Below are positions 1,286 to 18,367 of a stretch of DNA of 58,548 nucleotides, piece after piece (within the stretch, counting starts at the first letter, position 1; each line of letters opens with the position of its first letter). A model generated the notes under the pieces. That model ran no database searches, was not told the DNA's origin, and saw nothing but the letters and a program-made list of their open reading frames with translations. The position numbers and the translations under genes were made by a program. Source of the DNA: a virus (Duplodnaviria > Caudoviricetes); IMG/VR virus record IMGVR_UViG_3300045855_000047, positions 1 to 58,548 of that record, one strand, 5' to 3'.

Positions 1286-2321
1286 ATCTGGGGGCAGTTC
1301 TAGCTCCGCACCACCTCCTGATCCCGCCCTTGTTGCGGCGCAGATCAAGTCCATGGGGATTCAGGATGAGTCCATTGGCCAGATCATGGACATGGCCAAG
1401 AGGATGGCCCCGCTGCAAGAGCAGCAAATGCAGTTTGGCCTGGACTCTGCCAAGACCGCCTATGACCAGTCGCAGGAAGATCGCACGTGGATGCTGGGGC
1501 GCCGGGGCATTCTTTCCGGTGCGCAGGATACGATGGTGGCCGACGCAGCCAACTTCAATACTGAGGCCAAGCGTGAAGAGCTTGCCGGCAAGGCCACGGC
1601 CGATGTCAATAGTTCGTTTTCTTCTGCCCGGGACCAGGCCATGCGCGGACTGGATCGCCGTGGTGTCAATCCGGCCTCAGGTGCTGCTGGTGCGATTGAT
1701 GGCCAGCTTACCCTGGCCCAGGCCGCAGCCGGCGCGGGCGCTGCCAACAACGCGCGCACCCAGGCCCGGGCCGAGGGCAGGGCGCTCAATGACAAGGTGG
1801 TTAACTCCCTGGCGGGCTATCCAGCCATGGCTGCAGGCGAAACTACAACCGGCGCAGGCCTGGGTACAACTGGCCTGGGCATAGCCAATACGGCTCTGGC
1901 TGGTTTGAATGCAGGGTCAACGTCTGCGGCAACCATCGCCGGTTCTATGGGTACCAACGCGACACAGATGTTTGGTGCTCAGGGCCAGTACAAGAATGGC
2001 CAGGACAATGTGAACCAGGGTGATAGCGCAGCTACAACTATGGGCGGGATTGGTGGCTTGCTGGGTGGTGCAGCGAAGCTAGCCCCCGTATTTGGCTTCT
2101 CTGATCCTCGCCTGAAAGACAACATTGTGTTGGTCGGCAAGGACGAGGCTACCGGCCTTAACCTGTACGAGTTCAACTACATCACCAATCCGCGCATGCG
2201 ATTCCGTGGCGTGATGGCTGATGAAGTCCTTGCATACATGCCTGCCGCTGTCGTCAAAACGACTGATGGATACCTGGCGGTGGATTACAGCCTAATTGGC
2301 ATTGAAATGGTGGAGGTCTAA
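1275..2321 (+). CDS. Internal virion/ejection protein with C-terminal S74-type intramolecular chaperone domain
   Basis: GGAG RBS then ATG at 1275 (MCCESGGSS). Ala/Gly/Gln-rich body. C-terminal SDPRLKDNI...GVMADEV...GYLAVDY motif. Confidence 0.75.
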   Translation: MCCESGGSSSSAPPPDPALVAAQIKSMGIQDESIGQIMDMAKRMAPLQEQQMQFGLDSAKTAYDQSQEDRTWMLGRRGILSGAQDTMVADAANFNTEAKREELAGKATADVNSSFSSARDQAMRGLDRRGVNPASGAAGAIDGQLTLAQAAAGAGAANNARTQARAEGRALNDKVVNSLAGYPAMAAGETTTGAGLGTTGLGIANTALAGLNAGSTSAATIAGSMGTNATQMFGAQGQYKNGQDNVNQGDSAATTMGGIGGLLGGAAKLAPVFGFSDPRLKDNIVLVGKDEATGLNLYEFNYITNPRMRFRGVMADEVLAYMPAAVVKTTDGYLAVDYSLIGIEMVEV

Positions 2322-3977
2322 ATGGCTAAACGTGGTGGCTTCAACGATTTCATTTCTGCCTTTAATCAGGGCTTTGATACCGTCAACAAGATCGGCAAGG
2401 ACTACGAGATTTCCAAGCTGATGCAGGATAAGGGCACGGCCGTCTATAACCCTGACCAAGTAGACCAGCGTGCCGCCATTGAGGGCGCCGTTGATGCCGA
2501 TGGCAAACCCATGTATTCAGTGGATACCACGGCGGATGGGCAAACGCGGGTGCAAAGCAATCTGCCTGCTGACGATGGTACGCAACCGGCTCCATTCAAC
2601 ATTGCGGCCAATGGCACCCAGTTCATGGGCAAGACTGTTGACCATCCGATGACAGATGTGGAGAAGGCCTCTACTCGCAATATGGCAATGTCCGGCATCA
2701 TGGCTAAGTATGGTGATGCTGAGGGTGCAATGCGCTTTCAGGATAGTGCCCTGGCTATGCAGCGCGGAGCCAAGCAGGATGCCCAGGGTGACCAGCGTTT
2801 TGCGTGGGACAAGAGCCGGGCCGAGCGCGATCAGCGCCAAGGTGACCAGACTGAGGCTGATCAAAAGGTCATGCGCGATGTCGATCAAAAGACAGGCGAA
2901 TGGTTTAAGGGTCGGCTGACAAACCCCGATGGCACTGAGCGCGCCCCCACGATGGACGACCACCTGGCCGCAAGCCAGTACCGCGCAGGCCAGCTTACCG
3001 AGGCCGGCAAGGTGGAGGCCGCAGGCAAAGCTATTGCTGAACACAACTCTCAGGCGCTGATCAAGATCCAACTGGAAACCGCCCAACGCGACCAGGATCT
3101 GGCCAAGACTTCATCTGCGCTATCTGCTGGTGATTTGAATGCCGTGAAGGACTTCTACAACAAGTACGTGCCGGACGGTGCCAAGGTGGTGGCTGTCACG
3201 CGGGACGATAAAGGACAGATCAGCATCCAGCGCGAAACCATGGACGGTAAACCCATGCCGCCCACGGTAATGAAGGACACCGGCCAGCTTGCCAGTGCAC
3301 TTGCATCGTTCAAGGATCCGCTGGCGCTCTACAACTGGACGCAAAACGAGTTCAAAAACAACCTGCTGACCAATGCCGATAAGCGCGGTGAAAAGCAACT
3401 GAATTTGGAAGGTGAGCGCGTGAGCATCGCCCGCGATGCAGCGAATACCACCAAGGCCGATACCGAAGCCCTGCGCACTGCTGGCGCTGCCTACGAAAAG
3501 GCACGCCAGGCTGGCGACCAGACTGGAATGAATGCGGCCACGCTGGAGATGATCAAGGCAGGCGGCGTCAACCCGGGCGCAGCCAGTGCCAATGATCCGG
3601 CCGAGGTCAAGCTGGCCAGGGCCATGATGCAGGCTGGCATGGCCACGGATATGAAGGGTGCTCTGGAAATGGCAATTTCCAAGAAGGGCCAGTCGGCTGA
3701 CGAAATGCATAAGGCATTTGTTGAGGCGGGCATCAAGAACATGAGTTCTGCTGAGGACTCGGTAAAGAAGGCCGACGATGTGATGGGCGCCATGGGCTTC
3801 AAGAAGGTAAGCGGGCGCTGGACCCAGACCGCAGGCGCGGGCGCGCCGGCAACACCTACCAAACCGGCAAATGAAGCGGATGCTCAAACACAGGCCAAAG
3901 CGGCCATAGCTGGTGGCGCTGATAAGGCGGCAGTCAATGCACGCCTGAAAACTCTGGGATTCAAGCCCATCGACTGA
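2322..3977 (+). CDS. Internal virion/ejection protein
   Basis: 551-aa helical Ala/Gln/Asp-rich ORF, GGAGG RBS, lies between an ejection protein and the giant protein. Confidence 0.7.
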   Translation: MAKRGGFNDFISAFNQGFDTVNKIGKDYEISKLMQDKGTAVYNPDQVDQRAAIEGAVDADGKPMYSVDTTADGQTRVQSNLPADDGTQPAPFNIAANGTQFMGKTVDHPMTDVEKASTRNMAMSGIMAKYGDAEGAMRFQDSALAMQRGAKQDAQGDQRFAWDKSRAERDQRQGDQTEADQKVMRDVDQKTGEWFKGRLTNPDGTERAPTMDDHLAASQYRAGQLTEAGKVEAAGKAIAEHNSQALIKIQLETAQRDQDLAKTSSALSAGDLNAVKDFYNKYVPDGAKVVAVTRDDKGQISIQRETMDGKPMPPTVMKDTGQLASALASFKDPLALYNWTQNEFKNNLLTNADKRGEKQLNLEGERVSIARDAANTTKADTEALRTAGAAYEKARQAGDQTGMNAATLEMIKAGGVNPGAASANDPAEVKLARAMMQAGMATDMKGALEMAISKKGQSADEMHKAFVEAGIKNMSSAEDSVKKADDVMGAMGFKKVSGRWTQTAGAGAPATPTKPANEADAQTQAKAAIAGGADKAAVNARLKTLGFKPID

Positions 3978-3998: not shown

Positions 3999-4030
3999 GG
4001 AGAGTTGCCGGGTCTTATTTGGAGATCCGC

Positions 4031-7000
4031 ATGGGCGCTTTTGACGACTTGATTCCGGCTTCTGGTGGCGGTGGTGCTTTTGATGACCTGGTACCGCAAA
4101 AACGCGAGGAGTCTGGGGGGGCCAAGGCGCTGCGCTTGGCTGATGCAACTTACAAGGCTATTGGTTCCGGGCTCATTAAGGGCTCTGCTGACCTGGCCTC
4201 TGGCATTGGCAACGCCTCAATCGATCCTTCATCTTTTGCGATGTCCACCATCCTGGGTGGTGTAGCTGCTGCCGACCGTGGCGTTACAGCCGTTGGGAAT
4301 TGGGTTTCACCAGGTAGCGCAACCCCGAGCGAGGGGATCCAGCAGACCGCGCAGGATGCTGCCGCATTCGCTGCGGCCGAGCGCGAAAAGGCAATCCAGC
4401 AGGCACGCATGCGCCAGGGCAACGACTTCAAGAATGACCTGGTGAAGATGGGCGTTCAGGTGCGCGATGCGGGGCGCACGGTGTCTGGCGCCATGCAGGA
4501 CTTCGACCAGAACAACAACCCCACGTTGACCGAGCAGAGCAAGGCCATCAACGATGCGACCGGCTTTGTGGATACCACTAAGGCCATGTTCAACAACCCG
4601 GTTGGCACTATCAACCAACTGTCCAACTCTGCCCCGGGCATGGCCGCAGGCCTGGGTCTATCACGTGCTGCCTCCATGGCGCGCATGGCTGGACTGGAAG
4701 CTGGTGCTGGAGCCACTGCCATCGAGGCGGCAAAGGTGAAGGCTATTTCATCAGCCAGCACTGCCGGCGCCGTGTCTGAGGCTGCACAAGCTGCCATTCA
4801 GGACCGCGAGAGCGTTTATCAACAGGTGGCGGGTACTCCATTCGACCAACTGGCCGAGAAGTCCCCACGCTTCAATGAAATTGTGGCCAAGGTGGGCGAC
4901 CAGGCCCGGGCCCGCCAGATCCTGGCAAACGAACTGGCCGACCAGGTGACCCTGGGCGCCGGCGTTGTCACTGGCCTTGGCACCATCGGTGTGAACAAGC
5001 TGTTTGGCGGTGACACCACGGCCAAGATTGTCAGCGGCCTGGAGAAAACCACGGCCAAGACTGCCGCAAAGGATGTGCTGCAGGAGGGTGTGGAGGAAAC
5101 GCTGCAGGGCGTTCCCGAGGATCTGGTGCAGCACGGCGCACTGAGTCAGGCCGACAAGGACAAGAAGCTGGATCTGGGTGGATCTGCCGCGCAAAACTTC
5201 TGGGCTGGCGCGCTGATGGCCTCGCATGGCGCTGGCGGCTCGTACATAAAGGACAAGATTGCCGACTACAAGGATGGTAAAGCGGCCACTCCACCGGCTG
5301 ATCCGCTAGACCCAAATCCGAGCTCCGCGACTCCCAATACACCGCCTCCATCTGCCCCGGCTGGCGCTGCTGCCACGCCCGAAGTTTCAGCCGCTGAGAA
5401 GGCCTTGATCACACCGGTAGAGCTCACCAGCCTGGACCGGGTGAATTCCATTGGTACCGAGCTTGAAGGGTTGCAGGCGCGCCAGCAGGAACTGGCACCG
5501 GGCGGCGCCTATGGTCCGATGTTCGACCAGGAGCGCACCGAAGTCGCTACCAAGATCGCGGAACTGAGCCAGGAGCGTGCCGACCTGTCCAAAGACTGGG
5601 CGAAACCGGTATTTGGAAATGCAACAACGGTAACCCTTCCGAGTGGCGCTGTTGTTGCTGCACATTGGGCTGTTATTGATGCTGGCGAGGCACTTCCAAG
5701 CCATGACATCAATCTGAAATCCAATGACAGCTACGACAAATCTCTACAGCCAAGGGATCGCGGAGAACGCCATGGGTACGAATTGCAAATCGCTGGCATT
5801 GTCCAGAGATACAACCCGGCAATGCTTGATGAATCCCCACTGGCGGGCATGGGTGCGCCAACGATGCGCATGGATGGATCGGTTATTGATGGAAACGGAA
5901 GGGAAATTGCAACGCAGCGGGTTTATCGTGCCAATGGACAAAAAGCTGCGGAACTTCGCGCTTATGTGAGTGCGAACTCTGATCGCAAGGGCATTCCTCC
6001 TGAAGCCTTTTTGCACAAGGCAAACCCGCAGTTTGTGAGGGTGATCGACCACATTCCCGGGTTCAATTACGGAGAATTTGCGAAACAAGCCAATGAGTCG
6101 GTAATGGCACCGATGTCGCCCAGCGAAACCGCCAAGTCGGATGCCAACCGCATCGACACCATGGAGGATCTGAAAGCTGACGATAACGGTGATTTCTCCA
6201 ATGCCGCCTCGCAGCCGTTCATTCGCCGCTTCATGGCCCGCCTGCCCGCCACAGAGCAGGCCGGGATGATCGACGCCAGCGGCGCGCTATCCACCACCGG
6301 CTATGCCCGGGTGCGCAATGCTGTGCTGGCCAAGGCCTACGGTGATTCGCCAGTGCTGGCCCGCATGACCGAGAGCATGGACGATAACCTGCGTAATGTG
6401 AGCAAGGCCCTGCTGCTGGCTGCACCCAAGGTGGCGCAGATGCGCGAGGCCGTGGGCGCCGGCAACCGCTTTGATGCCGACATCACGCCGGACCTGATGG
6501 GCGCTGTCGAGGAACTGTCCCGCCTGAAAGAGAAGGGCACATCCGTCGAGGATGCACTGGCCCAGGCTGGCATGTTTGGCGATGACCAGCCCCAAGAGGT
6601 CAAGGATCTGCTGCGCTTCCTGTCGGAGAACCTGCGCCGGCCGCGCAAGATTGCCGACTTCATCACCGCCTATATGGAAGCCCTGGATGCTGCCGGTGAC
6701 CCGAACCAGGGCTCACTGCTGGGTGACGTGCAAGCGCCCACCAAGGGAGAACTTTTAACCGCTGCCAAAAGGAGCCAAGATGCTGCCGGACCAACCAACA
6801 CCACGACTGCCACGGACACCCAGCGGGCAGACTCTGCAAAAAACCCGCAAGATGGTGTTGCGCCTCAAGGCCGACCAGAAAATGCGCAGAACGATCAAGG
6901 CGGCACTGGCCGCGATGGGTCTGCCCAAGGATCCGATACCCGACTCAGCCGCCAACGGAATAGCGCCCCTGTAGGCGAAGCCTCCGAGTGGGTTAACTTT

Positions 7001-10000
7001 CCCAAGGATTCCGGCACTATCGGCATTCCCCGCGCGGATATGCCCCAGATCAAAGGGGAGCATCGTGGCGCGCTGATTCAGTTCCTGCAAGCACGCGGCA
7101 TCGAGCACAAGACCAAGGAAATCCCGGCCGCTGACTTGAAGCCCACGCAAGCTGAGTTCTCCACCAAGAAGGCCGCGCGCTGGAGTGAGGTGCGTGATGG
7201 TGTGGACCGTTCCGTGCTGGTGTCCAAAGATGGCCATATTCTGGATGGGCACCACCAGTGGGTGGCGGCGCTGGCCGCGAATGAGCCGGTCAAAGCCATC
7301 GTGTTGAACGCTCCGATTCGTGAGCTCATGGCCAACGTGTTCCAGTTCCCCAGCGTCAAGCAGTCAGGGGATTCTGCAAGTGCATCCGAGGCGGACGGCC
7401 GCGCTAAGCCGCGCGAGGACTTCAAGCAGGCTATGGCCGAGCTTGCTGACCTGGTGGCCGACAAGCTGGGCACTCGCGTGATGATGATGCCGTCCGGCGA
7501 TCCCAAGATCATGGCCGTGCTGATCAAGCTGTTCGACTCTGCCATTCGCGTGGTGGGTACCGACTTGAAGGCCGCAACCAAGTGGGTGAAGGCGCAACTC
7601 AAGGGCATGCCCGAGACAAAGCCCTACTGGAACAAGATCACCGACAAGGACTATTCTGCTGCCGCCATGGCTGCGCTGGAGCAGCAAGCCACGGCGCATG
7701 TGGATGATCTATTCTCTGCTGCAGAAAAGAGCCAGGCCGATCTGTTCAGCAACGAGCCGGCCGCGCCCAAGGTGGCCATGATCGACGGCCGGGCCTATGA
7801 CTACACCTTTAAGACCGGGGATAACTTCAACCCGCCAAGCGTCAGTGACTTCTTGCCAGATAAAGAAGTCAAATTGGCTGATGGCCTGGTGGCCAAATAC
7901 TATTCCAATAAGCCAGAGGTCAAACTTGCGGCCGATATACTAGCGCGCGGTGAAAAGCTGATCCAGCCGTTCATTGACAAGGCCAATTTGGTCAAGTCGG
8001 AATATGACCAGAAGATTATCGACATTGCCACGCGTACCAAGGCTATCGGGCAATTGCTTGCTCCCATCAAGAGCACCAAACGTGCAGTTGAAAAAATGCA
8101 CGATGATGCGATTGAGAAGAATCGAGAAATGCGCGCTGATGATGTGAAGGACTTGCTGCGCGCCACCATTGTCGTATCACGGTATGAGGACGCCCAGGCA
8201 GTCATCAATGAAATCGGCAAAGAATTCAAAATCCTGCGCACGAAAAATAGAACTGAAACCGACTTCATTCAAGCCAAGGCGGAAGGCCGCAAGGGTACCG
8301 GCGGATATTCTGATGTGTTGGTTAACGTACAAATGCTCGATGGCACAGTCGCTGAAATACAGGTCAATATTCCTGAAATGTTGGCTGCAAAAGAAGGCCC
8401 TGATAAGCAGGGCCAGGGTCACAAGCTATTTGAAGCAGCTAGGGAGCAAAAAACTACAAATCCTGCTCTGTATGCTGAGATTTATGAAGCCATGGAAGGC
8501 TTCTACGATGCTACGTTCTTGGCAGCCCAGTCGCGTGCATTGGATGCCGCAGCCAAAAATCCTTTGGGATCATCAGTAAACCCCAATGCACGCGATGGTA
8601 AGTCCTTGATGCCAGGGCAAGGTATCAATGAGTCCCCATCGTCGGACAGCTTGAACCAGGAACCATCTGGGAAACAGACAAAATCATCACCATCCGAGTC
8701 TCCGGAAAACTTGCAACCTGGGGGGAAAACTTCTGGAACTTTCATATCAAACTCCAATACAGATAGTGTAGCGAAAAAAACCGAAAACGGATATAGTCAG
8801 AGCAATCTTTTTGGGGAAAGCAATGGGAATGATACAGACGGTGGAACTGGCTCTCAAGGAAAAGGCGCCGGCGCTGTATCAGCAGCTGGCCGCAAGCGGG
8901 GCACTCAAGGCCCACGTGAGGGATCTAGCGGAGCAGATCAACGCGGAGACGGTACGCCTGGTGCAGGAGGACCGTCGCAAGAATCACTGGGACAAACTGG
9001 GACCGATGGAACTGGCGGGAAAACTGAAAATGTCGGACGCACTCAATCAAGAGCGCGCGATGGCGGACCTGCTGGAGTTCCCGCAGGACGAGACATCCCC
9101 GCAAAGTCTGGGCTAAATTACGAGTTTGGACCTGATGACCTGACCTATGAAGGTTCATGGGTAAAGAAGGCCGCGCAAAACGTCGACGCAGTTGAATTGC
9201 TGGTGAAGCTGGAGGCCGAAGGGCGCCAGGCTACCAAGGACGAGCAGACTGTGCTGGCCAAGTTCGTCGGTTGGGGATCATCCGAAGTGGCCAATGCCAT
9301 CTTTGGTACGGCCGGCGACAAGAACGAGTCCAAGATCAAGGCCTTTAATCTGGCGAAGGCTGCGATTGAAAACAGCGCCAGCATCAGCTACAGCAACCCG
9401 AACTACTGGACCATCAAGGCCGTGCTGGATCAGGTTGGCCGGGCGCGCGTGCCATACCGATCTGACATCGATTCGGCATTCATCAGCCCCAAGAATTTCG
9501 GCCTGGAGTCCAGCGACATCAAGTATGGTGACCTGCGCGCACGCCTCAAGGCGGTAATGTCAAAAGATGAGTGGGCCGAGGCTTCGCGCTCTACCCAGTA
9601 CGCGCACTACACCAGCCGCGCCATCGTCACCTCCATGTATAAGGCCCTGGATCGCATGGGTTTCAAGGGCGGCGCCATGCTGGAGCCAGGCGCTGGCATT
9701 GGGGTATTCCCCGGCCTGATGCCTGCAGCCATGGCGGCAAACACTGCCTATACCGGCATCGAGTTCGATTCGATCACTGGGCGCATCCTCAAGCAGCTGT
9801 TCCCCGATGAGCGCATCCTGGTCGAGTCCTTTGTGGATTCCAAGCTGCCCAAGAATTTCTATGATGTGGCCGTTGGTAACCCGCCGTTTTCCGGCACCCA
9901 GATCCTGGGTGATCCTGAATACCAGAAACACGCTTTCAACCTGCACGACTACTTCTTCGCCAAGTCCATTGATCGTGTGAAACCCGGTGGCCTGGTGGTC

Positions 10001-13000
10001 TATGTCACCAGCAAGGGCACCATGGACAAGCTGGGCGACAAGGCCCGCCAGTACCTGGCCGGCAAAGCGGATCTGGTGGGCGCCATCCGCCTGCCGCAAA
10101 CCGCCTTCAAGCAAAACGCTGGTACCGAGGTAGTCACCGATGTGATCTTCCTTCGCAAGAAGGTACCCGGTGAAACCTTCGCGCATGCACAGGCCTGGCT
10201 CAAGACGGCCACAGTCAAGACGCCGGACGGCCCGGCCATCATCAACGAGTATTTCGCTGCTCACCCTGAAATGGTGCTTGGTACCCATGCGCTGCAGGGC
10301 TCCATGTATAAGGCCAACGAGTACACGGTGCTGCCGCTGCCTGGCGACATTGAAGAGCACTTCGCCAGAGCAGTGGAAAAGCTGCCGGCTGACATCTATG
10401 TGACCCAGCGCGGCACCAGCGCCGAAGCGGCCAAGGTCCGTGAAATCGACTTCAACCCCAAGGCCCAAAAGGAGGGTAACTACTACGTGTCCGATGCCGG
10501 CGTGCTGATGGTGCGTGAGGGCGGTGTGGGCATGCGCGCCGAGGACGTTGCAGCCAAGGATATGGAACTGGTTAAGGACTTTGTGCCACTGCGCGATGCC
10601 CTGAAACAGGCCCACTACGACCAGTTGAACAATGGCGAGTGGGAGCAGAGCATGGTCGCTCTGCAAAAGGCCTATGCCGCCTTCACCAAGAAGCACGGCC
10701 AGATCAACCAGTTCACCACCAAGATGGTCAAGACCACGGTGGTGGACGAGGAAACCGGCGAGAAATTTACCGACGAGGAAGCCCGGCGCACCCACACCCT
10801 GCTTTCCAAGATCAAGAACGACCCGGATTACACCCTGGTCATGGCGCTGGAAAACATCAACGACGATACCGGCGTGATCAGCCCCAGCGCGTTCCTGACC
10901 GAGCGCGTGTTGGGCAAGCAGGCCACGGCGCAGGTCAGCACCCCCACGGATGCGCTGCTGTCGGTACTGAATGACGTGGGCCATGTGGATATGGCGGCAA
11001 TCGCCCAGCGGCTCAATGTGTCAGAACAGGATGCCATCAGCGCCCTGGGTTCCTCCGTCTACCAAGACCCAGAGGGCGAGTGGGTGACGGCTGACGAATA
11101 CCAGAGCGGCAACGTCAAGCGCAAGCTGGAGATTGCCCGCTCCGTTGCCAAGTCCGACAAGGCCTTCGAGCGCAATGTCACTGCCTTGGAGGCGGTACAG
11201 CCAGAAGCCAAGACCCCGAGCCAGATCAATGCCAGCCTGGGCATGAACTGGATTCCCGGCCAGGTGTATGCCGACTTCCTGCAAGAGGTCACCGGCGTGC
11301 GCGCGCGGGTGGAATGGAATGCCCGCACCAAGCAGTGGATTGTGGAAGAGAAGGCCGGTGGCGCCACGATGCAAGCCCGGGCAGATTGGGGTACAGACCG
11401 CCGCAATGCGACATCCCTGCTGGAGCATGCGCTGACTGGGCGCAAGGTACGCATCGATTCGCGCGCTGGCAAGGACGAGGCGCCCAAGTTCGACCCGGCC
11501 GCAACCGAGGCGGCAAATGCCAAGCTGGTCGCTCTGCAAAACGAATTCCAACAGTGGATCTGGAAAGACCCAGAGCGCACCAATACCCTGGTGCGGGAGT
11601 TCAACGACAAGTTCAACACCACGGTACCGCGCTCATTCGATGGCACGCACCTGACGCTGCCGGGTACCTCCAAACGCTGGAGCGTGTTCGATCACGTTAA
11701 GCGCGGCGCCTGGCGTATCGTGGCGCGCGGCAATACCTACCTGGCACACGCAGTGGGCTCCGGCAAGACGTTCCAAATGGTGATTTCCGCCATGGAGCAA
11801 AAGCGCCTAGGCTTGATCAAGAAGCCCATGATGGTGGTGCCAAACCACATGCTGCAGCAGTTTGCCCGCGAGTGGCAGGATCTGTACCCGGCCGCGCGCC
11901 TGATGGTGGCTGACGAAAACAACTTCCACACCGACAACCGCCGCCGCTTCGTGTCGCGCGTGGCGCTGTCTGACCTGGACGGCGTGATCATCACCCAGTC
12001 GGCATTCAAGCTGCTGGACCTGGACCCCGAGTTCAAGCAACGCATGATTCAGGAGCAACTTGACTTCATGCGTGCGGCGCTGGTTGAGGCTGGCGGAAAC
12101 CCGGACACCCCGGGCAAGAACGGCCGCGAACCCCGCATCAAGCAGATCGAGAAGCAGATCGAGAACATGGAACAAAAGCTCGAAGCGGCCATGTCGTCGG
12201 TGGGCAAGGACAAGAATGCCCGCTTTGACGAGTTGGGTGTGGACATGCTCTATGTGGACGAGGCCCACAACTACCGCAAGCTGGATTTCACGACAAACCG
12301 CGAAGTCAAGGGCATCACCCCTGCAGGCTCCGGCCAGGCCTTTGACCTCTTCATGAAGTCGCGGTACCTGGAAGAAAAGACGCCGGGCCGCTCCCTGGTG
12401 ATGGCCTCCGGCACACCGGTTACCAATACCGTAGCCGAGCTCTACACCGTGCAGAAATTCATGGACCGCCAGGCCCTAATCGACCGTGGAATGGAGGACT
12501 TCGATAGCTGGGCGGCAATGTTCGGCCGTGAGAAAACCACGCTGGAGCCCAACGCCGCAGGAAAATACGAGCCGGTTACCCGGTTCTCCAAGTTCGTCAA
12601 CGTGCCCGAGCTCACGCAAATGTTCCGTGAGTATGCGGACGTGCTGAATTCTGACCACCTGGCAGCACTCCTGGGCGACAAGCGCCCCAAGGTGGATGGT
12701 GGATCGCGCAAGATCACCATCACACCCAAGACGGACGACTACGCTGAATACCAGGATGTGCTGTCTGAGCGTGTAGCCCAGTCCAAGGCCTGGAAGCCTT
12801 CGCCAGACCAGCCAAACAACCCAGACCCCATCATCAAGATCATTGGCGATGGCCGGCTGGCAGCAATCGATATGCGCTTCATTGATCCGAGCCTGAAAAA
12901 TGACCCGGACTCAAAGCTGAACCGCATGATTGATGACGTGATCAAGTCCTACAAGGACACGTCGAGCATGGAGTACACCGACAAGGCCGGCAACCCAGAG

Positions 13001-16000
13001 CCCAACAAGGGCGCATCCATGATGGTGTTCTCTGACCTGGGTTTCGGCGCTGGTGTGGCGGCAAGCCGTGGCTTCAATGCCCGGGCCTGGTTCGAGAAGC
13101 GTATGCGTGATTCAGGCGTGCCCATGGCGCAAGTAGCGTTCATGTCCGATTACAAGAAGTCGGCCGACAAGCTCAAGCTGTTCAAGGATGTGAATGCCGG
13201 GCGCATGCGTATCCTGGTTGGCTCCAGCAAGAACATGGGCACCGGTGTGAACGCGCAACAGCGCCTCAAGTCCCTGTTCCACCTGGATAGCCCATGGTAC
13301 CCGGCTGACCTGGAGCAGCGCGAGGGCCGCATCATCCGCCAGGGCAACAAGAACCCCTTGGTGCAGATTTACGCCTACGCTGCAAAGGGCACGTATGACG
13401 AGAATATGTGGAAGATGCTGGCCAGCAAGCAGTATTTCATTGACCAGGCCCTGAGCGGTGATGCGAACCTGCGAGAGATTGAGGATCTGGACTCCATGAG
13501 CCAGTACGACCTTGCTGCCGCCATGATCGCCGATGACCCCCGTATCCTGCAGTTAGCCGGCGCCCGGGCTGACATCGAGAAGATGCAGCGCCTGTATCAG
13601 GCCCATGAGCAGCAGCGCATGAAGTTCCTGGAGCAGTCGCGTAACGCTACATCCACGATTGCCTATGCCGAGCACCAGCTGGTGAAGGCCACGGCGGATG
13701 CCGGCCTGGTGCAGGATCTGTCCGGCGACAAGTTCACGGCCAAGGCTGGCAAGAAGGCCTACACCGTGCGTTCAGACTGGGCGCAGGCCCTGATCGACCG
13801 TTACAAGGAACTGGCTGCAAGGGTTGAAACCCAGACCCAGACCATTGGCCAGATTTCAGGTTTCAATGTGGCATTCAAGGCTGAGAATGTAGCCGGCCAA
13901 TACCTGGCCCAGATCATGCTGGAAACACCTGAGCAGCTGGTACTGGCATGGGAAGGTGGCGTAAGCCCCGTTGGTATGTCAATGCGGGCAACCAACGCAC
14001 TGGCGGCTATGGCTACTTTGCCTTATAAGCTGCGTGATCGCATTGTCGAGGCCCGGGCCCTGGTGGATGCCCTTGGTACCCGCTTGCAAACCCCGTTCCC
14101 CATGGCGCAGATGCTGGCAGAGAAGGTGCGCGAGGCTTCTGACCTGGAAGCCCAGATCGCCGCCGATAGCAAGGCCAAGGATGCGGCCAAAGCTGCTGAA
14201 TCCCCGGCGGAAGGTGAAACCAAGCTGTCCCGTGGGACTGGTGGCGGCATGGACGTATCAATCCTGGCTGCGCTGGCCACCAAGATCAAGAAGGCCATGC
14301 CAAATATGCCCATGGTGCACGTGCTGGAATCGCCAGCAAAGGCACCCAAGGCCCTGCGTGACTACATCGAAAAGCAGGGCGCCATGGCTGATGTGGAGGG
14401 CGCTTACCATGATGGTGAGCTCTACCTGTTCGCCTCCGGCCTGTCGGATGCGCTGCGTGCTGAGCACGTACTGGCCGAGCATGAGGCCGCTCACTTCGGC
14501 CTGCGCTCAATGCTGGGTGACTCCCTCAAGACCACCATGCTCATGGTCTACAACAACAACACCTATATCCGGCAGCTGGCAACCGAGTTGCAAAAGCGCG
14601 GCAAGCTGTCCAATGCTGAAGCTACGGAAGAGGCGATTGTAGACATTCCCACTTCGCGCCTGATCAAGCTCCAAGGCTGGCGCAAGCTGGTACATGGCGT
14701 GCACGCATGGCTTGGTGCCTATGGATTCGAGAACATGGCGCGCAAGGTGGGCGACTGGCTCAACGGATCCCTGGATGACCAGCAGCGTGCGGATTTGTTC
14801 GTGGCGAACCTGGTGACGGCGGCACGCCGGCACGTGGCCGGCAAGAATCAGGGCAAGTTTGATACGCAGTCCGGCACCATGCTGGCAAGCTCCATGGCCG
14901 ATGATGCCATGCAGCAAGAGAAATGGCTGATGACCGAGGCGCGCGCCCGGGGATTCAAGGACATCGACCAGTTGGCCGAGCAGGACTACCCCTTGTTCGA
15001 GAAACTGGCCAAGCTGTGGCGCGAGAAGAATCCGGCCGATGAGGGTATCCTGATGTCGCGTGGGGTTAGCGCGCTGCGGCGTTGGGCTGGTAAGTCCAAG
15101 GTTGTGGATGCAAACGGAAATCCCCGGGTGATGTACCACGGCACAACGGCCGATATTTCCACCTTCAAAGAAGGTGCGCCAATTTACGTTGCTGATACCG
15201 GTGCTGCAGCCAGCGAATATGCCAAGCAATTCGGCTATGTGGAAAACGCTGATGCTGGTAATGGCGGAAACGTCATGCCGCTCTATGTCAAGGCTGAAAA
15301 CCCATTCGATTACGAGTCTCCTGAAAATGTAGCCTGGCTGGTGTCCGCGCTCAAGGCATCCGACAAACTCAAGTCGGTACCAATCCAAGAGGATGAGGAT
15401 TACTACCCAGTTTTTGACAGTGCACAAGAGGCACTCAAGGCCGGTGACCCCTACGCATACCGCAGTAAAGTGGTTCAGGATGCCATCGCCAAACGGTTTG
15501 ATTCCTTCTACTCCGTTGCGCGCGGCGTGCGTAATCTGGCCGTGTTCTCCCCCACTCAAGTGAAAAGCGCCATTGGCAACAATGGAGCCTACGACCCAGC
15601 AAACCCGGACATCCGCATGTCGCGCCCGGGTACCGCCGCCCAGCGCGCGGACCAGATCATTCAGACCAATGCCAGCACCGCTAAGCCACTGGACGCAGTA
15701 GCGCGCATGCTGACCCGCGTTACCGGCCTGGAGCGCCTGACCGGCGCCATTTATAACCGTGCTGGCTACCTGCTGGACCGGTTCACCCCGGAAAACGTCA
15801 AGGCTGGCCTGGTGTCGGATTACGGCGTGCCCGAGTCGGTGATCGACCAACGCGCCATGATGCAGGGGCGCCAGCGCGTGCAGTTGCGCCAGGCCGGCGC
15901 CCTGATCGACAAGCTCTCTACCCTGACCCGGGCCGAGTCCCGCGTGGCCTACGCATGGATGAATGAAACCGAAGCCGGCCAGGCCGACTATTTCATGCAG

Positions 16001-18367
16001 CAGCTGCCGCCCGAGTCCGTCAAGATCCTGGAGGACGTGCGCCAGATGATCGACAAGCTCTCCCAGGAGGCCGTGCGCATGGGTCAACTTGGAGCCGATG
16101 TTTACGAAAAAACCAAGTTCGCATACCTGCGCCGGTCCTATGCCAAGTACACCATGGACCAGACCCCAGGCCAAAAGGCGGCGCGTGCGCGCGCAATCTC
16201 TGTGCTGGGTGACCAGTACAAGGGCCGAGGCCTGACTGAGGCTGCGACCATGAAGCAGATCCAGAACGTGGCGCCCGAGTGGTGGAAGCGCAAGCTGGCC
16301 AGCGGCAAAGCCGACAAGGGCCTCAAGGGCGAGAAGTTCATTCGCCTGGAGCGCCGTGCATCGAGCGGGCAGGGCGTCAACCCGCTGCCAGGTGTGGCCG
16401 GCAACAAGGCCCAGGGCCGGCTGCAGGAGGTGCACTACTTCCCAGCCGGTGAGGCGCTGCCTGCCAAGTATGCCGACTGGGACAAGGCCGGCACGTTCGA
16501 GGTGCGCGACACCCAGGGCGAGAAGGTTGTGCTCTGGCGCGACTTCACTAAGGACGAGCGCGAACAGATGGGCGAAATTGACGAGGCCCGCTTTGCCATT
16601 GCCAAGACGCTGCAGGGCATGATCCATGATGTGGAGGTGGGCCGCTACCTGGAATGGCTGGCACACAATCAGGCGCTCAAGGAAGGCCAGACTATCCCGG
16701 GCGCCGTGGTGGATGCATCCGACCGGTACCGCGACACCTTCAAGCCTGGCGAGTGGGTCAAGGTGCCCGATGCCAAGATCAGCGGCACCAGCGTGGCCAA
16801 ATACGGCAAGCTGGCCGGCCGGTACGTCCCGGGCCCGGTGTGGAACGACCTGCGCCAGACAATGAATGGCCAGTTCAAACCATTCGGTGACACCTACGGA
16901 ATGATCCTCTCTGCCTGGAAAACGGCCAAGACGGCGCTATCGCCCGCGGTGCACACCAACAACATCATGTCCAATTTCGTGATGGCCGACTGGCACGATG
17001 TCACTGCCGGCCACACAGCCAAGGCCTTGCGCATCCTCCTGGGTGCGCATGACCAGGGCGGCAAGGGCGTGCTGGGTACCATCGGAAACAAGGCCGCGGG
17101 CGTGATCGGCTCGGCCGACCGTGATGCAGCACGTGAGATTGTGAATCGGTACCTTGATTCTGGCGGTGACATTGGTTCGTGGGCAACAAACGAGATTTCC
17201 AAAAAGCAGATCGAGCCTTTGCTTGATGCCCTGGAAAAGGAACTTGCTGCAACCAACGGTCAATCTGTGCAGGCCCAGGTTGGTATCTTCCATGCGCTGC
17301 AGCATGCCCTGCAAATGCGTTTCCCCAGTGCCTGGGATTCCCTCAAGGGATCCACGACCGGCAAGGTCATTGGCACTGAGGCCAGCACCGTGATCGACCT
17401 CTACCAGTCAGAGGACGAGGTATTCCGCCTCGCTGCCTGGCTCAAGGCCAAGGAAGAGGGCAAGACCGATATGGAAGCGGGCAAGATCGCACGCCGGTCC
17501 TTCATGGACTACAGCATCAATGCACCCTGGGTGCAGGCCCTGCGCAACTCGGCGCTACCCTTCGTGAGCTATACATACCGCGCGGTACCCATGTTCATGG
17601 AGACTGCAGCCAAGAAGCCGCACAAGCTGCTCAAGCTGATGGCCATTGCCGGCGCCCTGAATGCCTTTGGCCTGATGATGGCCGGTGGTGGTGGGGACGA
17701 CAAGGAGCGCAAGCTGCTGCCGGAAGAGAAGGCCGGCCGGGTGTGGGGCCTGGTACCAAAGATGATTCGCATGCCCTGGAATGACCCCAACGGGTCGCCG
17801 GTGTACCTCGACATCCGCCGCTTCATTCCAGTGGGTGACATCTTCGACATTGGGCAAGGGCACTCGGCCATCCCATTGCTGCCGTCCCTGACGCCTGGCG
17901 GGCCGCTGGCCATCCTGGCAGAACTGGCATTGAACAAGACCCAGTTCACAGGCAAGCCCATCACCCTGGACACCGATACCGGCCTGCAGCGGGCAACCAA
18001 GGTGCTGGACTACCTATACAAGGCATTCATGCCCAATCTGCTGGGCGTGCCCGGTACCTATGCGACCACTGGTGTGTTCGATGCAGCCAACGGAAAGACG
18101 GATGCCTTCGGGCGCCAGCAGTCGGTCGCCCAGGCCATGGCTTCAAGCTTTGGCGTGAAGCTGGGTAGTTACCCGGCTGACGTGCTGGCGCGTAACCTGC
18201 GCGGCGCGGCCCAGGCCCAGATCATGGAGATTGACCGCAACATTTCAGGCTTGAAGCGTCAGCGCCAAATGAATGGCATCAGCGCCAGCGAGTTCGATAG
18301 CAAGGTGCAAGTCGAGCAGGAAAAGAAGGCAAAGGTTATGAAGGATCTGGCGGAAAAAATGAACTGA
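4031..18367 (+). CDS. Giant (4778 aa) polyvalent, DarB-like protein: DdrB-like ParB, ParB-like, RelA/SpoT-like, N6-adenine methyltransferase, SNF2-like helicase, zincin, ADP-ribosyltransferase-like and LPD38-like domains
   Basis: GGAG at 4021, ATG at 4031. Motifs in order: LQPRDR (~5745), LDGHHQW (~7240), DLLRA/GYSD/EIQ (8150-8360), LEPGAGIG and NPPF (9878), HAVGSGKT, DEAH, SGTP, QREGRIIRQGN, HEAAH (~14480), VVDANGNPRVMYHGT...FSPTQVKSA (15100-15620). Confidence 0.92.
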   Translation: MGAFDDLIPASGGGGAFDDLVPQKREESGGAKALRLADATYKAIGSGLIKGSADLASGIGNASIDPSSFAMSTILGGVAAADRGVTAVGNWVSPGSATPSEGIQQTAQDAAAFAAAEREKAIQQARMRQGNDFKNDLVKMGVQVRDAGRTVSGAMQDFDQNNNPTLTEQSKAINDATGFVDTTKAMFNNPVGTINQLSNSAPGMAAGLGLSRAASMARMAGLEAGAGATAIEAAKVKAISSASTAGAVSEAAQAAIQDRESVYQQVAGTPFDQLAEKSPRFNEIVAKVGDQARARQILANELADQVTLGAGVVTGLGTIGVNKLFGGDTTAKIVSGLEKTTAKTAAKDVLQEGVEETLQGVPEDLVQHGALSQADKDKKLDLGGSAAQNFWAGALMASHGAGGSYIKDKIADYKDGKAATPPADPLDPNPSSATPNTPPPSAPAGAAATPEVSAAEKALITPVELTSLDRVNSIGTELEGLQARQQELAPGGAYGPMFDQERTEVATKIAELSQERADLSKDWAKPVFGNATTVTLPSGAVVAAHWAVIDAGEALPSHDINLKSNDSYDKSLQPRDRGERHGYELQIAGIVQRYNPAMLDESPLAGMGAPTMRMDGSVIDGNGREIATQRVYRANGQKAAELRAYVSANSDRKGIPPEAFLHKANPQFVRVIDHIPGFNYGEFAKQANESVMAPMSPSETAKSDANRIDTMEDLKADDNGDFSNAASQPFIRRFMARLPATEQAGMIDASGALSTTGYARVRNAVLAKAYGDSPVLARMTESMDDNLRNVSKALLLAAPKVAQMREAVGAGNRFDADITPDLMGAVEELSRLKEKGTSVEDALAQAGMFGDDQPQEVKDLLRFLSENLRRPRKIADFITAYMEALDAAGDPNQGSLLGDVQAPTKGELLTAAKRSQDAAGPTNTTTATDTQRADSAKNPQDGVAPQGRPENAQNDQGGTGRDGSAQGSDTRLSRQRNSAPVGEASEWVNFPKDSGTIGIPRADMPQIKGEHRGALIQFLQARGIEHKTKEIPAADLKPTQAEFSTKKAARWSEVRDGVDRSVLVSKDGHILDGHHQWVAALAANEPVKAIVLNAPIRELMANVFQFPSVKQSGDSASASEADGRAKPREDFKQAMAELADLVADKLGTRVMMMPSGDPKIMAVLIKLFDSAIRVVGTDLKAATKWVKAQLKGMPETKPYWNKITDKDYSAAAMAALEQQATAHVDDLFSAAEKSQADLFSNEPAAPKVAMIDGRAYDYTFKTGDNFNPPSVSDFLPDKEVKLADGLVAKYYSNKPEVKLAADILARGEKLIQPFIDKANLVKSEYDQKIIDIATRTKAIGQLLAPIKSTKRAVEKMHDDAIEKNREMRADDVKDLLRATIVVSRYEDAQAVINEIGKEFKILRTKNRTETDFIQAKAEGRKGTGGYSDVLVNVQMLDGTVAEIQVNIPEMLAAKEGPDKQGQGHKLFEAAREQKTTNPALYAEIYEAMEGFYDATFLAAQSRALDAAAKNPLGSSVNPNARDGKSLMPGQGINESPSSDSLNQEPSGKQTKSSPSESPENLQPGGKTSGTFISNSNTDSVAKKTENGYSQSNLFGESNGNDTDGGTGSQGKGAGAVSAAGRKRGTQGPREGSSGADQRGDGTPGAGGPSQESLGQTGTDGTGGKTENVGRTQSRARDGGPAGVPAGRDIPAKSGLNYEFGPDDLTYEGSWVKKAAQNVDAVELLVKLEAEGRQATKDEQTVLAKFVGWGSSEVANAIFGTAGDKNESKIKAFNLAKAAIENSASISYSNPNYWTIKAVLDQVGRARVPYRSDIDSAFISPKNFGLESSDIKYGDLRARLKAVMSKDEWAEASRSTQYAHYTSRAIVTSMYKALDRMGFKGGAMLEPGAGIGVFPGLMPAAMAANTAYTGIEFDSITGRILKQLFPDERILVESFVDSKLPKNFYDVAVGNPPFSGTQILGDPEYQKHAFNLHDYFFAKSIDRVKPGGLVVYVTSKGTMDKLGDKARQYLAGKADLVGAIRLPQTAFKQNAGTEVVTDVIFLRKKVPGETFAHAQAWLKTATVKTPDGPAIINEYFAAHPEMVLGTHALQGSMYKANEYTVLPLPGDIEEHFARAVEKLPADIYVTQRGTSAEAAKVREIDFNPKAQKEGNYYVSDAGVLMVREGGVGMRAEDVAAKDMELVKDFVPLRDALKQAHYDQLNNGEWEQSMVALQKAYAAFTKKHGQINQFTTKMVKTTVVDEETGEKFTDEEARRTHTLLSKIKNDPDYTLVMALENINDDTGVISPSAFLTERVLGKQATAQVSTPTDALLSVLNDVGHVDMAAIAQRLNVSEQDAISALGSSVYQDPEGEWVTADEYQSGNVKRKLEIARSVAKSDKAFERNVTALEAVQPEAKTPSQINASLGMNWIPGQVYADFLQEVTGVRARVEWNARTKQWIVEEKAGGATMQARADWGTDRRNATSLLEHALTGRKVRIDSRAGKDEAPKFDPAATEAANAKLVALQNEFQQWIWKDPERTNTLVREFNDKFNTTVPRSFDGTHLTLPGTSKRWSVFDHVKRGAWRIVARGNTYLAHAVGSGKTFQMVISAMEQKRLGLIKKPMMVVPNHMLQQFAREWQDLYPAARLMVADENNFHTDNRRRFVSRVALSDLDGVIITQSAFKLLDLDPEFKQRMIQEQLDFMRAALVEAGGNPDTPGKNGREPRIKQIEKQIENMEQKLEAAMSSVGKDKNARFDELGVDMLYVDEAHNYRKLDFTTNREVKGITPAGSGQAFDLFMKSRYLEEKTPGRSLVMASGTPVTNTVAELYTVQKFMDRQALIDRGMEDFDSWAAMFGREKTTLEPNAAGKYEPVTRFSKFVNVPELTQMFREYADVLNSDHLAALLGDKRPKVDGGSRKITITPKTDDYAEYQDVLSERVAQSKAWKPSPDQPNNPDPIIKIIGDGRLAAIDMRFIDPSLKNDPDSKLNRMIDDVIKSYKDTSSMEYTDKAGNPEPNKGASMMVFSDLGFGAGVAASRGFNARAWFEKRMRDSGVPMAQVAFMSDYKKSADKLKLFKDVNAGRMRILVGSSKNMGTGVNAQQRLKSLFHLDSPWYPADLEQREGRIIRQGNKNPLVQIYAYAAKGTYDENMWKMLASKQYFIDQALSGDANLREIEDLDSMSQYDLAAAMIADDPRILQLAGARADIEKMQRLYQAHEQQRMKFLEQSRNATSTIAYAEHQLVKATADAGLVQDLSGDKFTAKAGKKAYTVRSDWAQALIDRYKELAARVETQTQTIGQISGFNVAFKAENVAGQYLAQIMLETPEQLVLAWEGGVSPVGMSMRATNALAAMATLPYKLRDRIVEARALVDALGTRLQTPFPMAQMLAEKVREASDLEAQIAADSKAKDAAKAAESPAEGETKLSRGTGGGMDVSILAALATKIKKAMPNMPMVHVLESPAKAPKALRDYIEKQGAMADVEGAYHDGELYLFASGLSDALRAEHVLAEHEAAHFGLRSMLGDSLKTTMLMVYNNNTYIRQLATELQKRGKLSNAEATEEAIVDIPTSRLIKLQGWRKLVHGVHAWLGAYGFENMARKVGDWLNGSLDDQQRADLFVANLVTAARRHVAGKNQGKFDTQSGTMLASSMADDAMQQEKWLMTEARARGFKDIDQLAEQDYPLFEKLAKLWREKNPADEGILMSRGVSALRRWAGKSKVVDANGNPRVMYHGTTADISTFKEGAPIYVADTGAAASEYAKQFGYVENADAGNGGNVMPLYVKAENPFDYESPENVAWLVSALKASDKLKSVPIQEDEDYYPVFDSAQEALKAGDPYAYRSKVVQDAIAKRFDSFYSVARGVRNLAVFSPTQVKSAIGNNGAYDPANPDIRMSRPGTAAQRADQIIQTNASTAKPLDAVARMLTRVTGLERLTGAIYNRAGYLLDRFTPENVKAGLVSDYGVPESVIDQRAMMQGRQRVQLRQAGALIDKLSTLTRAESRVAYAWMNETEAGQADYFMQQLPPESVKILEDVRQMIDKLSQEAVRMGQLGADVYEKTKFAYLRRSYAKYTMDQTPGQKAARARAISVLGDQYKGRGLTEAATMKQIQNVAPEWWKRKLASGKADKGLKGEKFIRLERRASSGQGVNPLPGVAGNKAQGRLQEVHYFPAGEALPAKYADWDKAGTFEVRDTQGEKVVLWRDFTKDEREQMGEIDEARFAIAKTLQGMIHDVEVGRYLEWLAHNQALKEGQTIPGAVVDASDRYRDTFKPGEWVKVPDAKISGTSVAKYGKLAGRYVPGPVWNDLRQTMNGQFKPFGDTYGMILSAWKTAKTALSPAVHTNNIMSNFVMADWHDVTAGHTAKALRILLGAHDQGGKGVLGTIGNKAAGVIGSADRDAAREIVNRYLDSGGDIGSWATNEISKKQIEPLLDALEKELAATNGQSVQAQVGIFHALQHALQMRFPSAWDSLKGSTTGKVIGTEASTVIDLYQSEDEVFRLAAWLKAKEEGKTDMEAGKIARRSFMDYSINAPWVQALRNSALPFVSYTYRAVPMFMETAAKKPHKLLKLMAIAGALNAFGLMMAGGGGDDKERKLLPEEKAGRVWGLVPKMIRMPWNDPNGSPVYLDIRRFIPVGDIFDIGQGHSAIPLLPSLTPGGPLAILAELALNKTQFTGKPITLDTDTGLQRATKVLDYLYKAFMPNLLGVPGTYATTGVFDAANGKTDAFGRQQSVAQAMASSFGVKLGSYPADVLARNLRGAAQAQIMEIDRNISGLKRQRQMNGISASEFDSKVQVEQEKKAKVMKDLAEKMN
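6780..6974 (+). CDS. Nested +1-frame small basic ORF (64 aa) inside the giant gene
   Basis: AAGGAG 5 nt before ATG 6780. Coincides with a low-complexity linker of the host protein. Confidence 0.45.
   Translation: MLPDQPTPRLPRTPSGQTLQKTRKMVLRLKADQKMRRTIKAALAAMGLPKDPIPDSAANGIAPL
8503..8745 (-). CDS. Nested antisense small acidic protein (80 aa), candidate antitoxin/immunity protein for the RelA/SpoT-like domain
   Basis: Minus-strand GGAG 6 nt before ATG 8745, TACACT -10-like box at 8770-8765. Protein-like sequence MKVPEVFPPGCKFSGDSDGDDFVCFPDGSWFKL. Host frame is S/P-rich and low-complexity over the same span. Confidence 0.65.
   Translation of the reverse strand: MKVPEVFPPGCKFSGDSDGDDFVCFPDGSWFKLSDDGDSLIPCPGIKDLPSRALGFTDDPKGFLAAASNARDWAAKNVAS
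8765..8797. promoter_or_regulatory. Intragenic divergent promoter region with phage operator AACCGAAAACGGAT (8779-8792)
   Basis: AT-rich island. Minus-strand -10 TACACT (8770-8765) and plus-strand -10 TATAGT (8792-8797). The 14-mer matches operators at 27760 and 30645. No good -35 boxes seen. Confidence 0.6.
8823..9116 (+). CDS. Nested +1-frame TnpV-like protein (97 aa; alternative start 8829)
   Basis: GGGGAAAG before ATG. LKEKAPALYQQLAASGALKAHVRDLAEQ...MELAGKLKM...ERAMADLL resembles the TnpV family pattern by eye. Host frame is G/R/T-rich and disordered here. Confidence 0.7.
   Translation: MGMIQTVELALKEKAPALYQQLAASGALKAHVRDLAEQINAETVRLVQEDRRKNHWDKLGPMELAGKLKMSDALNQERAMADLLEFPQDETSPQSLG

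Follow-up and report, generated by a model that had tools for sequence, protein, structure and literature searches.

Enzymes that make (p)ppApp-type alarmones are known as toxins that travel with dedicated immunity proteins. Tas1 and FaRel, both (pp)pApp synthetases, are neutralised by Tis1-like domains (PMC11782079, available part), and known Tis1-like proteins are very divergent, BcTis1 being 24% identical to Tis1 (PMC10083569, available part). Four described systems come closest to the locus analysed here: the type VI pair Tas1 (Apk1)-Tis1 of Pseudomonas aeruginosa (PDB 6OX6); the phage toxin MuF-Apk2 with BcTis1 and Aph1 (PMC10083569); the toxic small alarmone synthetase (toxSAS) pair FaRel-AT2faRel (PMC11782079); and the giant polyvalent proteins of phages (PMC5512222), the statements on the last three resting on the available parts of these papers. 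The Apk-type toxin, Tis1-like immunity and the presence of RelA/SpoT domains in polyvalent proteins are thus already known, and the domain itself is not new. Here, we report on a 58,548-bp phage genome (the window, which is the complete linear virus record IMGVR_UViG_3300045855_000047), in which a Tas1-like domain occupies the interior of a giant protein, and a small gene lies antisense to that protein, starting within the linker that follows the domain. The reading that accounts best for this locus, and one that we hold to be quite probable, is that of a Tas1-like toxin domain in a giant virion-module protein, combined with an antisense, nested, Tis1-like immunity gene that has its own expression signals. 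The three features involved, the first two on the plus strand of the window, are the following.

4019..18367, plus strand: giant polyvalent protein gene, an open reading frame (ORF) of 4782 amino acids with several Pfam domains
7976..8512, plus strand: Tas1/Apk-type (p)ppApp-synthetase-like domain, amino acids ~1320-1498 of the giant protein, identified by a Protein Data Bank (PDB) match to Tas1 and by a profile
8503..8745, minus strand: antisense gene for an 80-amino-acid acidic protein (ATG 8745-8743, stop 8505-8503), the proposed immunity protein

The likeness to Tas1-Tis1 extends to both partners: the toxin domains are homologous, and the small protein is of the same size class (~76-80 amino acids), has Tis1 as its best or second-best structural neighbour and is encoded at the C-terminal end of the toxin. 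However, Tas1 is a PAAR effector, whereas the domain described here is internal to a phage protein, and the partner gene is located on the opposite strand, entirely inside the toxin-bearing ORF, with no detected sequence similarity to Tis1. As in the MuF-Apk2 system, where an Apk-type (p)ppApp synthetase is fused to a virion-associated carrier and always accompanied by a tis1-like gene, the toxin is carried by a phage; but the MuF-Apk2 immunity genes follow the toxin in one operon (PMC10083569, available part), whereas here the partner is convergent and antisense with promoter-like signals of its own, and the adjoining gene is a TnpV-like one in another frame, with no Aph-type hydrolase seen next to the toxin. 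FaRel-AT2faRel likewise joins a (pp)pApp synthetase to a neutralising Tis1-like domain, but as a chromosomal multi-gene toxin-antitoxin operon with a two-domain antitoxin (PMC11782079, available part), in contrast to a single-domain protein encoded antisense to a phage structural-module gene. Finally, the polyvalent proteins belong to the same giant class and list RelA/SpoT, DdrB-ParB, methylase, SNF2 and ART among their components; in the available part of PMC5512222, the RelA/SpoT domain is seen as an alarmone synthetase that manipulates the host, no immunity gene nested in such a protein is described, and antisense or overlapping genes are not mentioned. The available part of PMC12691689 does not mention an antisense, opposite-strand or polyvalent arrangement. 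No report of an alarmone-toxin immunity gene that is antisense or overlapping, and hence of the fully nested arrangement seen here, was found in the main texts of the open-access literature searched.

The other relevant comparison is with overlapping genes in general, reported cases of which share with this one a complete gene nested in another and the maintenance of both frames. Lambda Rz/Rz1 is an embedded complete gene of this kind, and most reported antisense overlapping genes are lineage-restricted, with functions that are unknown or disputed. The small gene described here differs in that its product is 26-59% identical across dozens of phage lineages and its function is testable via the domain that it overlaps.

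A Tas1-like domain with a linked antisense gene

The giant protein contains ddrB-ParB, Eco57I-type methylase, SNF2 (with Helicase_C) and ART-PolyVal domains detected with Pfam, in addition to the Tas1-like domain detected with a profile. With many unrelated conflict domains in one phage polypeptide, it is a 'polyvalent protein' as described in the available part of Iyer et al. 2017 (PMC5512222). Upstream of it is a gene for a virion structural or DNA ejection protein, with an internal virion protein gene in the vicinity; the giant gene is part of a virion and ejection-protein module. Counting its own copy, 33 giant homologs of 2710-6769 amino acids share the Tas1-like segment.

The four alarmone-synthetase-type motifs named in the original prediction are all present in frame (IKSTKRAVEK 8068-8097, DLLRATI 8150-8170, GYSDV 8303-8317 and EIQV 8356-8367), and each aligns with the corresponding motif of Tas1, both in a phmmer search of the PDB and with a profile (A1) of 15 homologous domain segments. 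In the phmmer search, the sole match of the excised segment (7850-8620) was Tas1 (6ox6_A, E 5.4e-5); profile A1 also retrieved Tas1 alone, at E 1.8e-15, with profile positions 23-193 aligned to Tas1 255-433. The synthetase motifs aligned to Tas1 are APlK..R...K, KDL.R.TI.V, GY..V, EIQ.N.PEM..AKE and QGHK.YE, and all A1-invariant residues (K53, R57, K61, D80, R83, Y132, E148, N152, K160, H170 and R177) are kept in the giant protein. Against the Pfam family RelA_SpoT (PF04607), the same segment scored 19.9 bits (E 9.1e-4), below the cut-off of 27; RelA_SpoT is not among the Pfam matches of the whole giant protein, and a precomputed PF04607 match was found for one homolog (P0016). The RelA/SpoT-like domain of the original prediction is thus a relative of the toxin-type RelA/SpoT homologs, but one that falls below the Pfam threshold; as judged by these alignments, it is a Tas1/Apk-type (p)ppApp-synthetase-like domain. 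Stand-alone homologs of 248-306 amino acids, 28-30% identical to the domain, are encoded in Azospirillum chromosomes (loci L061-L067), adjoining an ABC-transporter ATPase gene; these may be housekeeping or differently controlled enzymes.

Searching with the Tas1-like domain yielded 57 viral and 8 genomic loci. The antisense ORF is kept in homologs with an intact domain, at the homologous place in 56 of the 57 viral loci, with L038 as the sole exception. Its product is of one type (alignment A3) in 33 of these loci and of another (A4/A5) in 24, L044 having both. The 30 proteins of A3 align over their entire length and are 26-59% identical to the protein of this genome. An A3-type protein is lacking in the more distant viral loci L035-L059; in 24 of the 25, a different small minus-strand ORF overlaps the domain at its C-terminal end, with the consensus F.DVEGIPV.LG...AWD..PR.FP..SA.RNG.P....F..L. 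In a profile search of 1.84 billion representative proteins, we found 323 clusters of the family at E <= 1e-3 and 109 at E <= 1e-10, mostly of 58-150 amino acids; a single-protein locus search in genomes gave no match. Broadening the second type with 83 of these database proteins (alignment A6, which includes L045, a close relative of L044 in A3) gave an hhalign probability of 95.7% and E 9.5e-9 against A3. The direct comparison of A3 with A4 gave E 1.6e-4 with L044 present in both alignments, and E 6.3e-4 with a probability of 28% when L044 and L045 were removed. By these profile comparisons, the two types of small protein are clearly homologous. Among longer family members, P0070-P0074 and P0079 (244-461 amino acids) contain two small-protein modules or extra sequence, and P0193 (431 amino acids) fuses the module to TPR repeats; of 18 longer members searched with Pfam, 17 had no match and 1 had TPR repeats.

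The linkage also holds in the reverse direction. Searching from the small protein (alignment A7) produced 37 viral and 2 genomic loci, with 11 of the 39 contigs already in the domain-based set, and in 38 of the 39 (the exception being L069) a Tas1-like domain overlaps the small gene on the opposite strand. The small protein thus co-occurs with and adjoins an Apk-type domain in both search directions, in an antisense orientation unlike that of the known Tis1 cases. The position at the C-terminal end of the domain is maintained across architectures that include stand-alone toxins of 304 amino acids, ORFs of 400-1400 amino acids and giants of ~4800 amino acids. In six viral contigs (L047-L052, about positions 2057-3138), a stand-alone Tas1-like toxin of 304-312 amino acids and a convergent small gene overlap by the last 45-50 nucleotides, so that most of the small gene lies outside any sense ORF. 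The toxin ORF extends past the start of the small gene by 91-283 nucleotides in other loci and by more than 900 nucleotides in the giants.

Selection and expression signals in the nested genes

The antisense ORF spans 8503..8757 on the minus strand in total, with 84 codons from a TTG and 80 from the ATG at 8745. The stop codon at 8503-8505 shares nucleotides with the Tyr1496 codon, the point at which homology to Tas1 ends; the original prediction had noted that ORF and domain end together. The protein contains 12 Asp among its 80 residues, and all 13 acidic residues (12 Asp and 1 Glu) are opposite sense TCN serine codons; the acidity of the antisense frame and the Ser-richness of the sense frame accordingly mirror each other. 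The antisense frame shares its wobble positions with the giant frame, and stops in it require NNY|TAN (Tyr after a pyrimidine-ending codon) or NNT|CAN in the sense strand, which is free of Tyr in this segment. With properties of this kind, the initial reading of the ORF was that of a compositional by-product, which was dropped after the results on selection, fold and signal conservation.

We compared the two frames in a codon alignment of 34 loci that keep the tail plus this genome, which form 30 groups at 90% nucleotide identity. In the 30 non-redundant loci, codons were redrawn synonymously with the protein of one frame kept, and the identity of the other frame was predicted. Keeping the sense protein predicts an antisense identity of 0.338 +/- 0.003, against 0.426 observed, whereas for the sense protein, with the antisense protein kept, 0.382 +/- 0.003 is predicted and 0.394 observed. 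At the same time, keeping the antisense protein leaves the sense frame open in 12.0 of 30 loci (maximum 18), compared to 30 of 30 observed. In a control region, the catalytic domain, alternative frames exceed the null by just 0.01-0.02. By this asymmetry, purifying selection in the overlap acts chiefly on the small protein; the Ser/Pro-rich linker in the giant protein largely mirrors it and is under selection mostly for remaining open. In agreement with selection on the antisense frame, its stops are depleted three-fold in the region (6 observed versus 19.1 expected), whereas outside it, where 1527 were observed and 1390 expected, the resampling model is calibrated.

A second line of evidence comes from the sequence upstream of the antisense start. 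Third positions of the giant frame are strongly constrained from amino acid 1569 onward, with rare A/T-ending codons (z up to 17) in genes with 60-90% GC at third codon positions, and ~100 nucleotides (8723-8822) show very strong synonymous-site constraint with a preference for A/T. On the minus strand, the conserved elements are a TAnAnT box, often after TGn, a GGAG/GAGG core, and an ATG followed by AAA. In this genome, two of these are:

8752..8755, minus strand: Shine-Dalgarno (SD) core GGAG, 6 nucleotides upstream of the antisense ATG
8765..8770, minus strand: -10-like box TACACT of the antisense gene, identified by its sequence and by the conservation of TAnAnT

All of these elements occur far more often than synonymous resampling of the giant frame predicts: the ATG in 28 of 30 loci (null mean 21.0, maximum 26), the SD core in 29 (null mean 7.7, maximum 17), TAnAnT in 29 (null mean 1.1, maximum 5) and TGnTAnnnT in 22 (null mean 1.0, maximum 4). 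The z-scores of giant-frame third positions reach 11-17 at amino acids 1583-1585, over the antisense -10-like box. Furthermore, the SD motif stays at a fixed position although the amino acids of the giant frame and the underlying codon register vary. Of 14 loci with small genes of the second type, 13 have the SD core and 10 the TAnAnT box. The third-position constraint might have come from a programmed -1 frameshift or from a sense +2-frame gene, but this was rejected because that frame contains stops in L028, L008, L034, L030, L031-33 and L044. Taken together, we regard the antisense ORF as, at the very least, highly likely to be a real gene. None of 18 RNA runs was listed as containing this stretch, a blank that bears on expression in neither direction.

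The same linker holds another gene, in the +1 sense frame, and further candidate signals:

8823..9116, plus strand (+1 sense frame): second nested gene, TnpV-like, 97 amino acids from an ATG, identified by its homologs (alignment A2) and by dual-coding tests
8813-8819, plus strand: SD-like GGGGAAA of the +1-frame gene, identified by its sequence
8792..8797, plus strand: -10-like box TATAGT upstream of the +1-frame gene, consensus TATAcT
8396..8414, minus strand: weak terminator-like hairpin, GC-rich with a T-run, ~90 nucleotides past the antisense stop

Alignment A2 contains 19 proteins of the +1 frame; of the 30 non-redundant lineages, 19 have the complete gene, L023 has a truncated copy and 10 have none. 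The identity of its product (0.382) exceeds the 0.213 +/- 0.006 expected from the giant frame, and the giant frame is open over it in 19 of 19 loci where 1.6 are expected from the nested protein; in a control region, none of the 19 loci has an open +1 frame. Both frames are under selection here. The TnpV family (PF14198) matches 14 of the 19 members at E <= 0.1 (best E 2.5e-7), with the copy of this genome below the cut-off (19.6 bits against 27). The consensus TATAcT is seen in loci with the +1-frame ORF and mostly not in those without it, and rare T-ending giant-frame codons at amino acids 1592-1593, over the TATAGT box, have z-scores of 5.2 and 8.2. The +1-frame gene and the antisense gene diverge across a conserved region of ~80 nucleotides (8746-8822), and the stretch 8723-8822 reads as a putative compact bidirectional control region for the two nested genes. 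A motif, GGGAAyTTgTCTGGaACTTTCAT, is also kept in lineages without the +1-frame gene. The sole sigma-70-like match in 8300-9300 is a minus-strand site at 8857-8829 (TTGAGA-17-TATCAT, 10/12), located upstream of the antisense gene and within the start of the +1-frame gene. As for the hairpin at 8396-8414, which could be a terminator of the antisense transcript, there are 2 terminator-like sites against 1.4 +/- 1.5 in shuffles, so that the hairpin is not significant alone; its sequence corresponds to a GPDKQ insertion in the Tas1-like domain, which most homologs do not have.

Function of the small protein and rival explanations

AlphaFold2 models the A3 family as five strands and a C-terminal helix with a predicted local distance difference test score (pLDDT) of 90.8 and a predicted template modelling score of 0.79; the second type (A5) reaches a pLDDT of 85.0. 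When the two models were compared with 48,161 chains, 6ox6_B, which is the chain of the immunity protein Tis1 in the crystal structure of Tas1, ranked second for A3 (Z 4.3, root-mean-square deviation 3.6, 61 of 76 residues aligned) and first for the second type (Z 4.5, root-mean-square deviation 4.7, 60 of 76 aligned, 13% identity). Given (p)ppApp synthesis by homology and the Tis1-like neutralisation of such toxins, we propose that the 80-amino-acid protein is the immunity protein of the Tas1-like domain, an assignment that we consider probable.

Several observations weigh against this interpretation. All the structural Z-scores are below 5, and a Z below 8 may reflect a mere common arrangement; Foldseek found no PDB match at E <= 1e-3, with weak Sm/SH3-like rows only; profiles A3, A4 and A6 did not retrieve 6ox6_B from the PDB at E <= 10; and the small protein has no Pfam, NCBIfam or PDB sequence match. 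(The ESM Atlas yielded no usable match.) As to the gene itself, the antisense frame has a probability of 0.34 of being open in this genome when codons are resampled with the sense protein and codon usage kept, and its protein has Pro where at least 90% of relatives have Glu. The -10 box of this genome lacks the TG extension and a good -35, and a generic promoter scan picked the site at 8857-8829 instead of the conserved box. Finally, none of the 7 homologous domains encoded in Azospirillum chromosomes was seen to have a small partner ORF.

Among the alternatives, the one that survives best, although we consider it unlikely, is that the antisense gene is real and expressed but does not confer immunity, serving instead in the folding or assembly of the giant protein, or in regulation (by its protein or by antisense transcription of the giant gene), or being an unrelated moron in a tolerant linker. 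The evidence for the reality of the gene (selection, fold and signals) is silent on its function, the likeness to Tis1 is weak and was not found at the sequence level with three profiles, and divergent pairing with a TnpV-like gene across ~80 nucleotides is typical of regulatory cassettes. However, the small gene tracks the toxin domain through very different architectures, always at its C-terminal end, which fits a partner of the domain and not of the giant protein. Moreover, the TnpV-like gene is missing in 10 of 30 lineages that keep the antisense gene, and second and first ranks for Tis1 among 48,161 chains, obtained for two separately modelled families, are hard to dismiss.

We give very little credence to a second alternative, in which the domain is a signalling or a non-(p)ppApp enzyme, such as a (p)ppGpp synthetase or a tRNA pyrophosphokinase, and the small protein is its regulatory subunit. 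The product and toxicity of the domain follow solely from Tas1 homology, the Azospirillum chromosomal homologs are without a partner, and Iyer et al. 2017 (PMC5512222, available part) proposed that RelA/SpoT domains of polyvalent proteins provoke a host response resembling that to alarmones. Nevertheless, the one PDB match is to Tas1 and extends over its entire toxin domain, and Tis1-like partners go with (pp)pApp producers, whereas pZFD domains hold the tRNA-modifying toxSAS (PMC11782079, available part). The remaining alternative, a non-coding by-product of a Tyr-free, Ser/Pro-rich linker in a gene rich in GC at third positions that leaves the wobble-sharing frame open and acidic, draws on the restricted stop contexts, the TCN codons opposite all acidic residues, the many long antisense ORFs in the giant gene and an open-frame probability with a median of ~0.7 across 35 loci, but is already strongly disfavoured, and in our estimate highly improbable, given the stop depletion, the start signals kept at synonymous sites far beyond the null, the constant place of the SD while codons shift, the selection asymmetry and fold, the contigs L047-L052 in which most of the small gene is outside sense ORFs, and the 323 clusters called as proteins in public data. 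In this genome alone, the antisense ORF is indeed unremarkable; it exceeds chance only through the comparison with relatives. Two antisense ORFs in the giant gene are longer, with 474 (9560..10984) and 719 (14507..16666) amino acids; both are in the codon-aligned frame of the minus strand, neither has a Pfam match and both are probably artefacts of a GC-rich frame. The 719-amino-acid ORF spans the ART-PolyVal domain (amino acids 3697-3857).

Origin and proposed role

The original prediction of an embedded toxin-antitoxin pair, with an immunity gene kept linked by overprinting the opposite strand, is largely borne out at the sequence level, through the toxin-type domain, the conserved linked ORF, its signals, selection and fold, and each sequence-level test that it named turned out in its favour; the direction of overprinting that it implied, however, is probably the reverse. 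The small gene looks older and constrained, and the giant linker reads through it: the Ser/Pro-rich linker was probably overprinted on the small gene. The convergent arrangement in L047-L052, which is likely the ancestral state of the nesting, the graded read-through lengths and the selection asymmetry together suggest that a convergent toxin-immunity cassette came first, and that the toxin ORF subsequently read through the immunity gene and was fused to further domains.

The genome around this locus encodes a terminase, a portal, a tail fibre, RecT, an exonuclease, a reverse transcriptase and internal-virion or ejection-type proteins, and an integrase match is weak; it is a complete phage genome, probably of a temperate phage. 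The INPHARED phage collection contained no DNA or protein match. The reverse transcriptase (50803-51804, plus strand; phrog_1423, E 5e-99) lies close to tail-fibre-like genes, with which it possibly forms a diversity-generating retroelement.

By homology, the Tas1-like domain would convert adenine nucleotides to (p)ppApp by pyrophosphorylation with ATP and so drain ATP. We propose that the small protein binds to the domain and obstructs the site for the acceptor nucleotide, in the manner of Tis1 with Tas1. While virions are being assembled, the immunity protein would shield the cell producing the giant protein; it would probably shield lysogens too. Judging from the gene context and the literature, the giant protein may be packaged and injected, the immunity protein may be stripped from the toxin on ejection, and the toxin may then act as a timed pulse that is ended by early expression of immunity. 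If the host-type promoter signals function, the immunity gene would be made in lysogens and would provide superinfection immunity against the injected toxin; made early from the incoming genome as well, it would restrict the toxin to a brief, self-limiting loss of ATP by which the host is disarmed. A broader and distinctly more tentative proposal is that the linker nests two genes expressed divergently from the ~80-nucleotide control region, in a cassette swallowed by the toxin ORF that provides both lysogen immunity and the self-limited pulse.

It is still debated whether bacteria and phages have functional proteins encoded antisense, and very few persuasive examples have an established role. 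The comparative analysis makes this locus a well-supported candidate for the rare case of a functional antisense gene hidden in another gene: it is conserved across divergent phage lineages, predicted to fold with confidence, equipped with its own signals and linked to a concrete, testable role. For annotation, a gene within a 14-kb ORF is invisible to gene callers, which makes these polyvalent proteins appear to be toxins lacking an immunity partner. The arrangement suggests a way in which phages can assemble virions carrying a lethal enzyme without harm. It also implies that low-complexity 'linkers' of giant proteins may be shadows of genes in other frames, the same linker here holding the +1-frame gene too.

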